Translations under genes and position numbers: made by a program
NCBI GenBank assembly: GCA_016124615.1
Contig: WGNF01000014.1
Coordinates: forward strand, 40,932 to 104,931
Source: Paracoccaceae bacterium
Lineage (GTDB): Bacteria > Pseudomonadota > Alphaproteobacteria > Rhodobacterales > Rhodobacteraceae
Reading direction: 5' to 3'
Length of the DNA: 64,000 nucleotides
Notes under the pieces: generated by a model
Told to the model about the DNA's origin: nothing
What the model saw: only the letters and a program-made list of their open reading frames with translations
Databases searched by the model: none
In this document: one piece after another, positions 1,662 to 6,163 of the stretch
Numbering within the stretch: the first letter of the stretch is position 1
Layout: each line of letters begins with the position of its first letter

Positions 1662-2749
1662 AGCAGATGGCCCGACTTTGCCGCCTTGGTCGCCAGATAG
1701 GCCGCGTTCTGCGCGGTATGGCCAACCTTCAGCGGCACGCGTTCCACCACCTCCAGCCCGTTCGCGGCCATCATCCGCACCTTGGCGGGGTTGTTGGTCA
1801 ACAGCCTGAGCCGTGAAACCCCCATCTGCCGCAGGAGGCCCGCGCCGATGCGGAAGTCGCGTTCATCATCCTCGAAGCCCAGCCGGTGATTGGCCTCGAC
1901 GGTATCAAAGCCCTGATCTTGCAGCGAATAGGCGCGCATCTTGTTGGCAAGGCCGATCCCGCGCCCCTCCTGGTTGAGGTAGAGCAGGATGCCCGCGCCC
2001 TCGGCCCCCATCTGGCCAAGGGCCGCGCGCAACTGCGGGCCGCAGTCGCATTTCAGCGAGCCCAGAACGTCGCCGGTAAAGCAGGCCGAATGCAGCCGCA
2101 CCAGCACCGGCGCCCGGCGGTCGGGTTTGCCGATCTCGATCGCGTAATGCTCTTCGCCGCCATCCTCGGGGCGAAAGATGTGGACGCGGCCCGCCTCGCT
2201 GGCCTGCATCGGCAGCCGGGCAGAAACCACGGGATGCAGGGGCGAGGCGGCCAGCATCTGCGCCGCGGCCTCGGTCACCGGGATCAGTGTCAGCCCCTCG
2301 CGCGCGGCCAGCGCGGCGCCATCGGGCACCGCCAGCACCACGGCGGCGGGCAAGAGATGCGCCGACTTCGCCAGCTGGATCGCGGCCCGCGCCAGCGCGG
2401 CGGCATCGTCACGCAGGGATCGAAACGGCCCCTTCATCGGTGTGCGCAGATCGTCGGCGGGGTCGGCCACAGCTTGGATCCAGCCCAGCCCGGCGTCGGG
2501 CGGAATGGCCAGCCGCGCGAGATCGCCATCGTAGGCGCGCGCTTTCAGCGTTTCGGCCCGCCATGCGGTAATCGCCAGCGCCAGATCGCCGCCCATCACG
2601 CGCAGGTCGACCAGCCGGTCGGCCCCCAGCGTTTCGGCCGCCACCGCCAGCACGGCGGTCCCGCCCCCGGTCAGCACGACCGGCACGCCCATGCGCAGGT
2701 CGGCGCGGGCGCGGGCGAGGTGTTCGGCAAGGGTCGGGCGCAGGCTCAT
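1658..2749 (-). CDS. ribA: GTP cyclohydrolase II with N-terminal DHBP-synthase-like domain
   Basis: VRLHSACFTGDVLGSLKCDCGPQL, QEGRGIGLANK, LLTNNPAK motifs. Confidence 0.95.
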   Translation of the reverse strand: MSLRPTLAEHLARARADLRMGVPVVLTGGGTAVLAVAAETLGADRLVDLRVMGGDLALAITAWRAETLKARAYDGDLARLAIPPDAGLGWIQAVADPADDLRTPMKGPFRSLRDDAAALARAAIQLAKSAHLLPAAVVLAVPDGAALAAREGLTLIPVTEAAAQMLAASPLHPVVSARLPMQASEAGRVHIFRPEDGGEEHYAIEIGKPDRRAPVLVRLHSACFTGDVLGSLKCDCGPQLRAALGQMGAEGAGILLYLNQEGRGIGLANKMRAYSLQDQGFDTVEANHRLGFEDDERDFRIGAGLLRQMGVSRLRLLTNNPAKVRMMAANGLEVVERVPLKVGHTAQNAAYLATKAAKSGHLL

Positions 2750-2919
2750 GAGGCTCCGGGGGCGATGTGTTACGCTTATCTAAGGCGAAAGCCGCCGAAT
2801 TGAAACAATTGCCGCGCCTGCGACACGTCCGCGTGAGATTTCTGTCGCCACTCTTGTGCGGCCCGGGCGTCAGGCGCATGTCGGGGGGGCAAAAGAGGCC
2901 AGCAACGGAGGCCAAGACC

Positions 2920-3606
2920 ATGTCCACCCTCAAGAAAATCCTGCTTGTCGATGACGAGGAGGATCTGCGCGAAGCGCTGTCTGAACAGCTTGTGATGACC
3001 GAGGATTTCGACGTTTTCGAAGCTGGCACTGGCCACGACGCGATGGAGCGGGTGAAGGGCGGGCATTTCGATCTGGTCATCCTCGACGTCGGCCTGCCGG
3101 ATACGGACGGGCGCGAGCTGTGCCGCCGGATGCGCAAGCAGGGCGTGAAATGCCCGGTGCTGATGCTGACCGGGCATGACACCGACAGCGACACGATCCT
3201 TGGCCTTGACGCCGGGGCCAACGACTATGTCACCAAGCCGTTCAAATTCCCGGTGCTTCTGGCCCGCATTCGTGCCCAGCTGCGCCAGCATGAACAATCC
3301 GAGGATGCGGTGTTCCAGCTTGGGCCCTACACGTTCAAGCCTGCGCAGAAGATGCTGGTCGACGAGCGCGAGAAGAAGATCCGGCTGACCGAGAAAGAGA
3401 CCAACATCCTGAAGTTCCTCTATCGGGCGACCGAAGGCGTCGTGCCGCGCGAGGTTCTGCTGCACGAGGTCTGGGGCTACAACGCAGGCGTGACTACGCA
3501 TACGCTGGAAACCCACATCTACCGCCTGCGCCAGAAGATCGAGCCCGATCCCTCGAATGCGCGGCTTTTGGTGACGGAATCCGGTGGTTACCGTTTGGTA
3601 GCATAA
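2920..3606 (+). CDS. OmpR-family response regulator (receiver plus winged helix)
   Basis: ILLVDD, LVILDVGLPD, GANDYVTKPF, THTLETHIYRLRQKIE; start taken at MSTLKK, which follows a GGAG RBS. Confidence 0.93.
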   Translation: MSTLKKILLVDDEEDLREALSEQLVMTEDFDVFEAGTGHDAMERVKGGHFDLVILDVGLPDTDGRELCRRMRKQGVKCPVLMLTGHDTDSDTILGLDAGANDYVTKPFKFPVLLARIRAQLRQHEQSEDAVFQLGPYTFKPAQKMLVDEREKKIRLTEKETNILKFLYRATEGVVPREVLLHEVWGYNAGVTTHTLETHIYRLRQKIEPDPSNARLLVTESGGYRLVA

Positions 3607-3648
3607 GCGTCATATTGTTGCCGGAATGCAGGGCTATGCGTTCCGCTA

Positions 3649-3746
3649 GCGGCGATTGCGTCGCAAAGGTTCCCCTGGCCGCTTCGGGGTTATGAAGCGG
3701 CACCTCCCTGTTGGACTGGCCCGGGCTTCGGCTCGGGCCGTTTTTT
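3649..3746 (+). ncRNA. SorX-like sRNA in the 3' UTR of the OmpR-family gene (copy 1)
   Basis: Stem CCGCTTC-GGGGTTAT-GAAGCGG, core CACCTCCCTGTTGGACT, terminator GGCCCGGGC-TTCG-GCTCGGGCC-T6. The position matches recalled R. sphaeroides SorX, which derives from the ompR-1 3' UTR. Confidence 0.7.
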
Positions 3747-4992
3747 ATGGCTCGGGCAGCCGCAGGGCGTAAAGGCCATAGCCCGTCAGCATCAGGCCGC
3801 CGATCGCCGCGGTGGCAAAAGGCATCCGCAGCGCGATCGCCCGGCCCAGCGACGGTTCGAACGCCGCGACGATCACGCCGCCCGCCAGTGCGCCCAGTGG
3901 CATCATGCCAAGGCCAAGAAATCGGTAGACGCTGTTGACGCGGCCCAGCAGCGCATCGGGAATGACGCGCTGACGGTAGGATACCGTGACGATGTTCCAG
4001 AGCATCCCGCCCCCCGTGTAGATGAAGAGCGCCAGCCCGGCGAGCACGACGCTGTGGCCCAACGCCAGCAGCGCCGGGCCAAGGCCGAACGCCGCCAGCG
4101 CGGCGCGCAGGCAGGGGGTGGCGCCAAAGCGGCGCACAAGCGGCGGGCTGACAAAGCCGCCGATCACCCCGCCGGCCGCGCCCGCCGTCATCAACAGGCC
4201 GAACCCGGTGGCGGCCAGCGCCAGACCTTCGCGCGCATAAAGCACCAGCATCGTATCGGTCGCCGCCGACAGCGCGTTGACCACCCCAAGCACCAGCGCC
4301 AGCCGCAGCAGCACCGGATGCGCCCGCATCCAGTCGATGCCCTGACGCAGTTCGGCCAGGAACCGCTGCCGCGCGGCCTGTGACTGTCGCGGCCGCATCG
4401 TGATGGCGGCGACCAGCGCCGCCGCCGCGCCGAAGGTCAGCGCGTCGAACCCGAACGGCAGAGACACCGCGCGCGCGATCAGCACCCCGGCCAGCGGCGG
4501 GCCGACGAACGCGCTCATGACATGCTCGACGCTCCACATCTGGCCATTCGCGGCCTCAAGGTCGGCGGCGTCGACGACCGAGGGCAGCGCGGTCTGGGCG
4601 GCGTTGTCGCGCAGAACCTGCGCCGCACCCAGCAGGAAGGCCAGCGCCGCAAGGGCCGCGATGAAGGGGGGCGCGCCGCCGCCCGGCGGCAAGCGGGGCG
4701 CCGACAGGATCAGCGCGACGATGCCCAGCGTCAGCACCATCCGAAAGACATCGGCGCGGACCATGATCTTCTGCCGGTTGACGCGATCGGTGACCACGCC
4801 CGCGGGCAGCGCGAACAGGAACATCGGCAAGCGGGCGGCAAATCCGATCAGCGCGATCTGTACCGGGTCGCGGGTCAGAAGCGTGGCGAGCCACGGAAAC
4901 GCCAGCGCCGAGACGCCATCGCCCAGCGACGAAATCGCCGTGGCCGACAGCAGAAGGCGGTAGTTGCGGTTGCGCCGCAGCAGCGAAAGCAT
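3745..4992 (-). CDS. MFS transporter (DHA3/EntS/macrolide-efflux-like)
   Basis: RNRNYRLLLSATAISSLGDG, AGVVTDRVNRQKIM, QRVIPDALLGRVNSVYR; about 12 hydrophobic segments; start at MLSLLRR. Confidence 0.88.
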   Translation of the reverse strand: MLSLLRRNRNYRLLLSATAISSLGDGVSALAFPWLATLLTRDPVQIALIGFAARLPMFLFALPAGVVTDRVNRQKIMVRADVFRMVLTLGIVALILSAPRLPPGGGAPPFIAALAALAFLLGAAQVLRDNAAQTALPSVVDAADLEAANGQMWSVEHVMSAFVGPPLAGVLIARAVSLPFGFDALTFGAAAALVAAITMRPRQSQAARQRFLAELRQGIDWMRAHPVLLRLALVLGVVNALSAATDTMLVLYAREGLALAATGFGLLMTAGAAGGVIGGFVSPPLVRRFGATPCLRAALAAFGLGPALLALGHSVVLAGLALFIYTGGGMLWNIVTVSYRQRVIPDALLGRVNSVYRFLGLGMMPLGALAGGVIVAAFEPSLGRAIALRMPFATAAIGGLMLTGYGLYALRLPEP

Positions 4993-5191
4993 CGCCCGAT
5001 CGTCCTTTGAACACCCTGCCCGAGGCGGCACGTCGGCGCAGGTTCGGGGAAACCGGCATGCCGCGCAAGGGCGCCGGGATTGTCTACGAAATCGTGGTAA
5101 TGCCGACGCACTGTGGCGCAACCGTCACCATTCGGCGGCGTTCTTGACCGATAAGGAAAAATCACTGTGTCCGAAAGGATTGTTGCGTTTA

Positions 5192-5200
5192 TGATATAAT
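5192..5200 (+). promoter_or_regulatory. Extended -10 sigma70 promoter (TGnTATAAT) upstream of sRNA copy 2
   Basis: TGATATAAT at 5192-5200 in an AT-rich patch, enclosed by the GGATTG/CAATCC inverted repeat. Confidence 0.55.
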
Positions 5201-5214
5201 CAATCCAAGGTTGT

Positions 5215-5312
5215 GCGGCGACCGTCGTGCCGCAAGTATCCCTTGGTCGCATCGGGGTTATGATGCGGCACCTCCCTGTTGGACTGACCCGGCTTCTGGC
5301 CGGGTTTTTTTT
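5215..5312 (+). ncRNA. Second SorX/SorY-like sRNA (copy 2)
   Basis: Aligns with copy 1; GCGGCACCTCCCTGTTGGACTG is identical; compensatory stem change (GCATC/GATGC versus GCTTC/GAAGC); own terminator CCCGGC-TTCTG-GCCGGG-T7. Confidence 0.68.
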
Positions 5313-5374
5313 GCGCCACGCCGGACTGGATCGCGGGCGCGTTTCGTGTTGGAAAGGGGAAAAAGGAGAGCCCG

Positions 5375-6163
5375 ATGACCTTCACCCTCGCCACCTGGAA
5401 CATCAACTCGGTTCGTCTGCGCGCGGCGCTGGTGGCGAAACTAATGGCCGAAGAGGCGCCCGACGTTCTGTGCCTGCAGGAATGCAAAAGCCCGGTGGAC
5501 ATGATCCCGGTCGAGGCGTTTCACGCGCTGGGCTACACCCACATGGTTGCGCGCGGCCAGAAGGGCTACAACGGCGTCGCGATCCTGTCGAAGCTGCCGC
5601 TGGAGGATGCGGGCGGGCACGACCTGATCGGCATGGGCCACGCCCGGCACGTTGCGGCACGGCTGCCGAATGGCGTGACGATCCACAACTATTACATCCC
5701 TGCCGGGGGCGACATTCCCGACCGCGCGCAGAACGAGAAGTTCGGCCAGAAGCTCGACGTGCTGACCGAGATGCGCGACCGTTTCCATGCGGAACGGCCG
5801 GAACGCGCTATCCTTGTCGGCGATCTGAACATCGCCCCGCGCGAGGATGACGTCTGGAACCACAAGGCGCTGTTGAAGATCGTCAGCCATACGCCGGTCG
5901 AGGTGGAACATTTCGGCGCCGTGCAAGAGGCCGGGGCCTGGGTGGACGTGACGCGGGCGGATATTCCCGCGGGGCCGCTGTTCAGCTGGTGGTCCTACCG
6001 CTCGCCGGATTGGGATGCCGCCGACAAGGGCCGCAGGCTCGACCATATCTGGGCCACGCCCGACATCGCGGGGGCCGCCCACGGCAGCCGCATCCTGCGC
6101 GCCGCGCGGGGCTGGGAACAGCCCTCTGACCACGCGCCGGTGTTCGCCAGCTTCGATCTTTGA
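5375..6163 (+). CDS. xth: Exodeoxyribonuclease III
   Basis: [45 protein letters not shown]. Confidence 0.95.

Follow-up and report, generated by a model that had tools for sequence, protein, structure and literature searches.

The 64,000-nt stretch of DNA analysed here, referred to as the window (C3:40932-104931 of the 4.25-Mb assembly G000), contains two genuine SorX-type paralogues of a known small RNA, a base-pairing regulator of the stress response in Rhodobacter-type bacteria, and neither of these two sRNA genes is currently annotated. The joint reading that best accounts for the locus, to which a probability of about 0.75 is assigned, is that copy 1 represents the ancestral gene, that copy 2 has a promoter of its own, that the two share a seed, and that the copy 2 module has moved across a gene for a transporter of the major facilitator superfamily (MFS).

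The identity of the two RNAs was established with Rfam covariance models, RNA folding, a terminator scan and covariation analysis, and their parts are as follows.

3649-3671, + strand: 5' leader hairpin of copy 1, a pre-SorX-like extension (alignment with copy 2 at 5213-5237, and fold)
3672-3746, + strand: body of SorX copy 1 (RF02784 score, fold, terminator scan, covariation)
3678-3686 paired with 3693-3701, + strand: 5' hairpin of copy 1 (fold)
3702-3716, + strand: single-stranded seed of copy 1 (fold)
3717-3740 plus T-run, + strand: terminator of copy 1 (terminator scan)
5238-5312, + strand: body of SorX copy 2 (RF02784 score, fold, terminator scan)
5246-5254 paired with 5261-5269, + strand: 5' hairpin of copy 2 (fold)
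5270-5284, + strand: single-stranded seed of copy 2 (fold)
5286-5306 plus T-run, + strand: terminator of copy 2 (terminator scan)

Scanned against Rfam with gathering thresholds, the full 64 kb gave three matches, one tRNA and two SorX (RF02784, gathering score 46.6 bits). Copy 1 matches at 3672-3744 on the + strand with 64.5 bits (E 1.8e-13), copy 2 matches at 5238-5312 on the + strand with 65.1 bits (E 1.2e-13), and each covers the SorX model over its full length, positions 1-73. The initial annotation had described an alignment between the two stretches and proposed a covariance-model search as a check; the alignment is borne out, with the 22-nt core GCGGCACCTCCCTGTTGGACTG identical at 3697-3718 and 5265-5286, and both copies lie above the SorX gathering score. 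Its label "SorX/SorY-like" holds for SorX (64.5 and 65.1 against 46.6 bits) but not for SorY, since the SorY model (RF02651), run at permissive thresholds, gives the copies 41.3 and 30.2 bits against a gathering score of 111 bits.

The relation of SorX to SorY is nevertheless a real one. Published descriptions treat the two as separate sRNAs; the Rfam consensus lines of both share the block ACCUCCCUGUUGGAC(U) and a similar terminator, so that "homologue", the word used earlier for SorY, is reasonable. A SorY-like gene is found elsewhere in the genome at C23:237658-237751, which is the best locus for the SorY model (53.9 bits) and carries the same seed, and a fourth RNA with a near-identical seed lies at C23:440941-441011.

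Each copy folds into a 5' hairpin of 9 bp, followed by ACCUCCCUGUUGGAC as an open stretch and by a GC-rich terminator hairpin that ends in a U-run. This is the SorX layout, found in both copies, in which a covarying 5' hairpin precedes a single-stranded ACCUCCCUGUUGGA seed and an intrinsic terminator closes the RNA. The terminator scan gives each copy a terminator of its own, as had been claimed (3717-3740 and 5286-5306, each followed by a T-run), and copy 2 has a strong one of 9 pairs and 8 U. In the alignment, the copies remain homologous for about 25 nt ahead of the Rfam match, a segment that takes in a small leader hairpin, and the UCCC 5' end is preceded by A/U-rich sequence. In R. sphaeroides, a 116-nt pre-SorX precedes the 75-nt form (PMC6238624), and the leader hairpin of the window copies recalls this longer RNA. 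The cut to 75 nt is made there by RNase E.

The two copies differ in hairpin, leader and terminator loop. Between the two hairpins, one pair differs at both of its bases, being T3683-A3696 in copy 1 and A5251-T5264 in copy 2, and the second pair changes from C-G to U-G; the compensatory stem change described earlier is thus real, and consists of a U-A to A-U swap together with the C-G to U-G change. Covariation was examined in an alignment of 30 SorX sequences, 16 from the genus of Solirhodobacter olei and 14 from other genera. The swapped pair is GC in 16 of these homologues, AU in 8, GU in 3, CG in 2 and UA in 1, and double changes occur in 8 of 8 hairpin pairs; 94.1% of hairpin cells pair, compared with 80.3% in shuffles, where 0 of 500 reach the observed value, and sliding the partners against each other leaves at most 52% of cells paired in the same 30 homologues. 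The swap is one instance of a family-wide covariation, and it shows that both copies are still under structural selection. A further pairing, between the CCCC of the 5' tail and the GGGG of the hairpin loop, was considered separately; a crude shuffle test is non-discriminating (4.43 vs 4.05), and the columns concerned pair in 92% of cases but show double changes at one pair only.

The genes and candidate control elements around the two RNAs are as follows.

1658-2749, - strand: ribA-like GTP cyclohydrolase II (gene order of the region)
2823-2837, + strand: candidate CenR autoregulation box ACACGTCCGCGTGAG (near match to a predicted CenR site)
2854-2881, + strand: RpoH-type promoter motif TTG-N19-GCATGT (consensus match only)
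2920-3606, + strand: cenR, OmpR-type response regulator, orthologue of RSP_0847/ompR-1 (Pfam Response_reg and Trans_reg_C)
3614-3639, + strand: conserved box ATTGTTGCCGGAAT-N6-CTATGC directly after the cenR stop (recurrence in relatives)
3745-4992, - strand: MFS efflux-type transporter gene, convergent with copy 1 (Pfam MFS_3/MFS_1)
5375-6163, + strand: xthA, exodeoxyribonuclease III, conserved as the gene on the right (Pfam Exo_endo_phos; NCBIfam xth TIGR00633, 158 bits against a cut-off of 99)

Copy 1 belongs to cenR. Identity of cenR across the family is 83-96%, and the ribA-cenR-SorX synteny is kept. RSP_0847, from whose 3' UTR SorX derives, has been renamed CenR and is an essential envelope regulator (PMC9275681). 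The placement of copy 1 in an "ompR" 3' UTR proves correct once the gene is named cenR: copy 1 starts 65 nt past the stop codon, and no terminator lies between them. Copy 2 does not have this 3'-UTR position, being 1.6 kb away beyond the MFS gene. By homology with R. sphaeroides, copy 1 would be co-transcribed from the RpoH-type, CenR-boxed promoter of cenR and then cut out by RNases.

The candidate elements of that promoter have counterparts in relatives. The predicted CenR site upstream of RSP_0847 in R. sphaeroides is ACACGAGCGCGTGAG (PMC9275681, Table 1), and the motif GACACGTCCGCGTGA, slightly altered in places, stands upstream of cenR in each of the seven genus genomes whose sequence there could be examined. 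The consensus of RpoHI/RpoHII is TTG at -35 and CCATGT at -10 (PMC8266604); RpoH-type promoters carry TTG at -36 to -34 and A at -12, and the RpoH regulon table of R. sphaeroides includes RSP_0847 (PMC3441632). The pattern TTG-N19-GCAT[CG]T stands upstream of cenR in 7 of 7 genus genomes examined, and G011 has CCATGT at this place. The box ATTGTTGCCGGAAT-N6-CTATGC recurs ahead of copy 1 in G003, G004, G005, G007 and Fertoeibacter, and in G001 and G050 it stands ahead of copy 2; it was considered as a promoter but not adopted as one, its TTG-N16-CTAT spacing fitting neither the RpoH pattern (N19) nor that of sigma-70. A two-hexamer sigma-70 scan of 2700-5500 found no promoter.

The stop codon of the MFS gene (3745-3747, - strand) sits within the T-run of the copy 1 terminator. 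The claim that this terminator also ends the MFS gene is thus supported as far as the position of the stop is concerned, but the hairpin read on the MFS strand has no U-run. By NCBIfam, the MFS protein resembles the 2A0121 H+ antiporter and EntS families, with scores under their cut-offs.

The locus was compared across a GTDB genus of 8 species, Solirhodobacter olei Pet-1 among them. All eight have two above-cut-off SorX matches at the locus and the MFS gene between cenR and xthA, and two layouts occur. In the tandem layout, cenR-S1-(~130 nt)-S2-MFS-xthA, which is present in five species (G002-G005 and G007), the cultured S. olei Pet-1 being one of them, both SorX copies lie on the cenR side of the MFS gene; in the flanking layout, cenR-S1-MFS-S2-xthA, present in three species (the source genome G000, G001 and G006), the copies stand on either side of it.

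Two features upstream of copy 2 bear on its transcription and its origin.

5108-5219, + strand: copy 2 upstream module, with homology to the sequence that separates the tandem SorX copies in relatives
5192-5200, + strand: extended -10 element TGATATAAT of copy 2, the sole match in the window, with a predicted start near 5207

The TGnTATAAT reported earlier at copy 2 is indeed there, as TGATATAAT at 5192-5200, and it is the only TGNTATAAT in 64 kb, where 0.09 would be expected and 8 of 100 shuffles have at least one; it lies 38 nt ahead of the Rfam match of copy 2. An AT-rich, -10-like hexamer stands at the equivalent position in the other genus genomes, its quality varying and being weaker in several. 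No -35 element for copy 2 was found by the two-hexamer scan, and no RpoH-type motif was seen by eye upstream of it. With moderate confidence, TGATATAAT is regarded as a putative independent sigma-70-type promoter of copy 2. Copy 2 would then probably have its own transcription from the extended -10, giving an RNA of ~105 nt with a 5' leader hairpin.

A profile made from the tandem spacers of the five tandem genomes only matches 5108-5219 (nhmmer E 2.8e-6) and nothing else in 92 kb, which indicates that the promoter-plus-copy-2 module is orthologous between the layouts. Searched against the copy 2 upstream regions of G001 and G006 and against other genera, the same profile gave no matches; by this search, the G001 and G006 regions have no detectable homology to that of G000, and a shared origin with the tandem pair of G050 finds no support. 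A resemblance of the region far upstream of copy 2 to the 3' end of cenR and the upstream region of copy 1 had been seen by eye; a profile search gave no match, and it was discarded.

It is conceivable, if unlikely, that copy 2 is a redundant or decaying duplicate without a function of its own, that its promoter is a chance AT-rich stretch and that copy 1 alone matters. The lack of a -35 element in the scan would fit such a fate, as would the hairpin mismatch that copy 2 carries in G003 and G007 and the lower conservation of its bodies (mean pairwise identity over the 8 species of 77%, against 84% for copy 1). However, the flanks reach 52-56% on the same measure, so the bodies of copy 2 are far more conserved than their surroundings (77% vs 52%); CCTCCCTGTTGGACT is invariant in 16 of 16 SorX copies of the 8 species, which leaves the seed unchanged in all eight copy 2 genes; the hairpin is kept by compensatory changes and the terminator is kept in each; TGNTATAAT is unique in 64 kb; and copy 2 has been kept across a rearrangement in 8 of 8 species. 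Within a genome, the identity of S1 to S2 is 0.76-0.86, barely above the between-genome value of 0.78, and there is accordingly little sign of gene conversion.

Each RNA has a 15-nt single-stranded anti-Shine-Dalgarno seed, ACCUCCCUGUUGGAC, and since the seed is the same in both copies, the same mRNAs are expected to be repressed, by occlusion of the ribosome-binding site. The whole genome was screened for runs of 9 or more bases able to pair with the seed without a break, and the 10 best sites just upstream of start codons were compared with Pfam; 9 of these 10 belong to periplasmic solute-binding-protein genes, in a plain complementarity screen that is uncorrected for the strong Shine-Dalgarno sequence which such genes typically have. 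By Pfam, the nine are NMT1 (two), SBP_bac_8 (three), DctP, SBP_bac_5 (two) and Peripla_BP_6. One of these genes, for a PotD/PotF/YdcS-like binding protein, carries CAACAGGGAG at its ribosome-binding site. The PotD/PotF-like gene is at C20:188876, the DctP gene at C1:114310 and an SBP_bac_8 gene at C23:822413. The predicted targets would therefore be mainly ABC and TRAP periplasmic binding-protein genes, including a PotD/PotF-like polyamine binder, which fits R. sphaeroides, where SorX acts on potA (polyamine transporter) and SorY on takP. An hfq gene is present in the genome, the repression of potA by SorX being Hfq-dependent in R. sphaeroides. The MFS, xthA and cenR leaders, examined as targets, have duplex energies within the bulk of random genome windows; the idea that the MFS mRNA is a target finds no support, its leader pairing no better than 38% of random genome windows. 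The likely gain from the second copy would be that the same regulator comes under a different expression input.

The position of copy 2 allows another role, acting mainly in cis as a leader or attenuator for xthA through read-through of its terminator 63 nt before that gene, which would couple a DNA-repair gene to the SorX module. Copy 2, its terminator and xthA lie near one another in the same orientation, and SorX directly precedes xthA in G022 and G050. Such a role is nonetheless very unlikely, as 5 of the 8 genus species have xthA without SorX before it, the copy 2 terminator is strong (9 pairs, 8 U), and conservation of the upstream sequence nearest xthA does not depend on copy 2.

The history of the locus becomes clearer when the MFS gene is followed outside the genus. 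When 185,579 species genomes were searched with an MFS alignment, 364 relatives were found, and 80 loci were retrieved. In many of the 80, a single SorX directly follows the MFS stop and precedes cenR, with xthA on the other side; the single-SorX order cenR-SorX-MFS(-)-xthA is found in Jannaschia, Litoreibacter, Fertoeibacter, Pseudorhodobacter, Tateyamaria, Cochlodiniinecator and several MAGs. Since this order occurs in so many other genera, the MFS gene is not an insert, and by comparison of gene orders the newcomer is the second SorX copy, not the MFS gene. The least probable of the readings is that suggested in the initial annotation, integration of the MFS segment into a single SorX locus (e.g., by Campbell-type recombination) so as to create the flanking copies: direct repeats do flank the gene, as this mechanism would leave, and the outgroups G022 and G050 have cenR-SorX-xthA without the MFS gene, but the MFS gene adjoins a single SorX in many other genera, is present in 8 of 8 genus genomes, five of them with both SorX copies on one side, the copy 2 upstream region is homologous to the tandem spacer, and the MFS tree has a tandem-layout genome as sister to flanking-layout genomes.

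In the preferred reading, copy 1 would be the ancestral SorX gene, and the promoter-plus-copy-2 module arose most likely as its tandem duplicate; in the lineage of the source genome, this module would later have crossed the MFS gene, leaving its cenR side for its xthA side. The homology of the copy 2 upstream region to the tandem spacer suggests that the module probably moved. A terminator signature, GACCCGGC...GCCGGGT, is common to the three flanking-layout copy 2 genes and occurs in no other copy of the genus. In the MFS protein tree, G000 and G001 group together at 94/90, and the tandem-layout G002 is their sister at 100/99. The tree of ribA, cenR and xthA does not resolve the basal branches of the genus, and AU tests reject a clade of neither layout (p 0.30 and 0.18), so that it is the MFS tree and parsimony that give the rearrangement its direction. 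The most parsimonious course would begin with a tandem duplication, in the genus ancestor or earlier, after which a ~210-nt module was relocated once across the MFS gene. By another route, SorX and the MFS gene may have been duplicated together, one MFS copy then being lost differentially.

Duplication of SorX has also occurred elsewhere. In a census that took a single genome per genus for about 250 genera in the family, 188 had a SorX match above the cut-off, and about 60 genomes had two SorX matches at E <= 1e-10. At least three other genera (G050, G224 and G261) and the MAG K_MB387 have neighbouring SorX pairs behind cenR, and it can be seen from these pairs that SorX duplication is recurrent.

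It is tentatively proposed, as a possibility well short of an even chance, that the two copies have divided the regulation of one seed, copy 1 being stress- or envelope-induced with cenR and processed, and copy 2 being independent and possibly constitutive. If so, antisense read-through from the MFS gene, which converges on copy 1, would also reach that copy, the move across the MFS gene would have put copy 2 directly before the oxidative DNA-repair gene xthA, and the locus would be a natural example of a 3'-UTR-derived sRNA turning into a free-standing gene. SorX is among the few characterised 3'-UTR-derived sRNAs outside enterobacteria. The window locus and its relatives form a natural series, from one copy in the 3' UTR through a tandem pair to a gene-split pair, in which the UTR-embedded sRNA appears to gain its own promoter with the seed unchanged, and which bears on the origin of free-standing sRNA genes and on a possible common origin of SorX and SorY. 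For annotators, the locus offers a clear case of two unannotated sRNA genes together with a testable set of transporter binding-protein mRNA targets. The locus reveals no new kind of system, its RNAs being paralogues of a known sRNA.

Among known systems, the closest is SorX of Rhodobacter/Cereibacter sphaeroides (RSs2461, RF02784), which has the same hairpin-seed-terminator layout as both copies; the RpoH-type promoter motif upstream of the window cenR and the polyamine-transporter component among the predicted targets also have their counterparts there. Unlike R. sphaeroides SorX, the window has two copies per locus, one of which, copy 2, lies outside the 3' UTR with an apparent sigma-70-type extended -10. 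SorY of R. sphaeroides (RSs1543, RF02651) resembles the window copies in its seed block ACCUCCCUGUUGGAC(U) and terminator architecture and is transcribed independently, as is predicted for copy 2, but it differs in its 5' domain and in having an RpoHI/RpoHII promoter. In other Alphaproteobacteria, the AbcR1/AbcR2 tandem pair and CcsR1-4 are likewise tandem or neighbouring paralogues with anti-Shine-Dalgarno seeds of the CCUCCC type. AbcR and CcsR differ from the window copies in sequence, structure and Rfam family, and the likeness claims no homology; CcsR1-4 are 3'-UTR-derived, as is SorX, and AbcR represses transporter binding-protein mRNAs, as is predicted for the two copies described here.

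Beyond the window, two additional sRNA-like genes that carry the SorX seed, the single-stranded anti-Shine-Dalgarno stretch, are found in the same genome (G000), both on contig C23:

C23:237658-237751 (locus L003, 1499-1594), minus strand: SorY-like sRNA gene, scoring 53.9 bits with the Rfam SorY model RF02651, below the cut-off of 111.
C23:440941-441011 (locus L004), minus strand: second sRNA-like gene with the SorX seed, reading AUCCUCCCUGUCAGACUGG followed by a terminator.

The SorY-like gene contains UACCUCCCUGUUGGACUUAGGCCGAGC, with a U8 run further on, and has a CTTG-N19-CTAACT motif upstream; the SorX model matches this locus at 43-45 bits in all genomes of the genus. The complement of the seed, (C)CAACAGGGAG(G), is present at the ribosome-binding regions of genes for periplasmic binding proteins of ABC and TRAP transporters, and 9 of the 10 best seed-complementary sites in G000 precede periplasmic binding-protein genes.

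C20:188857-188876, C1:114293-114310, C23:822395-822413, C17:298134-298153, and others: sites complementary to the SorX seed.

In SorX itself, the 5' tail (U)CCC(C/U) is complementary to the GGGG opening the hairpin loop (window 3672-3689 and 5240-5257), and pairing between the two would make a pseudoknot together with the hairpin. The corresponding tail/loop sequences of other genera are CCCG/CGGG or ACCG/CGGU. When scored in the alignment of SorX sequences (A3, columns 4-7 with 17-20), the tail-loop showed 92% pairing, with double changes in one column pair only, and a shuffle test of this pairing did not discriminate.

Three motifs lie around cenR, the first two being conserved genus-wide:

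Window 2823-2837: CenR-box-like palindromic motif ACACGTCCGCGTGAG, upstream of cenR.
Window 2854-2881: RpoH-type motif TTG-N19-GCATGT, upstream of cenR.
Window 3614-3639: conserved box ATTGTTGCC(G)GA...(C)TAT, directly 3' of the cenR stop codon, also in loci L079, L125 and L035.

Some species (G001, G050) have the last box again upstream of SorX copy 2. Its spacing is not known to match any promoter class, and it could therefore be a processing or binding signal.

In G006 (L036, contig C8), about 600 nt extra, absent in the other genomes of the genus, separate copy 2 from xthA and hold a small ORF starting with the signal-peptide-like sequence MISVRCLTMSVAICALALPAAA...; apparent frameshifts are also seen in its MFS gene, cenR and ribA, and this assembly is 71% complete.

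Two SorX copies behind cenR are also found in other genera:

G050 (L125, contig C183): 220 nt apart.
G224 (L126, contig C3): 140 nt apart.
G261 (L127, contig C4): about 650 nt apart, with a small ORF in between.
MAG K_MB387 (L062): about 1 kb apart.

The MFS gene between the copies is convergent with copy 1, and its stop codon is contained in the U-run of the copy 1 terminator (window 3717-3747); on the MFS strand, no U-run lies 3' of this terminator hairpin, so MFS transcripts may extend antisense through SorX. The MFS gene and SorX likewise meet tail-to-tail in many genera.
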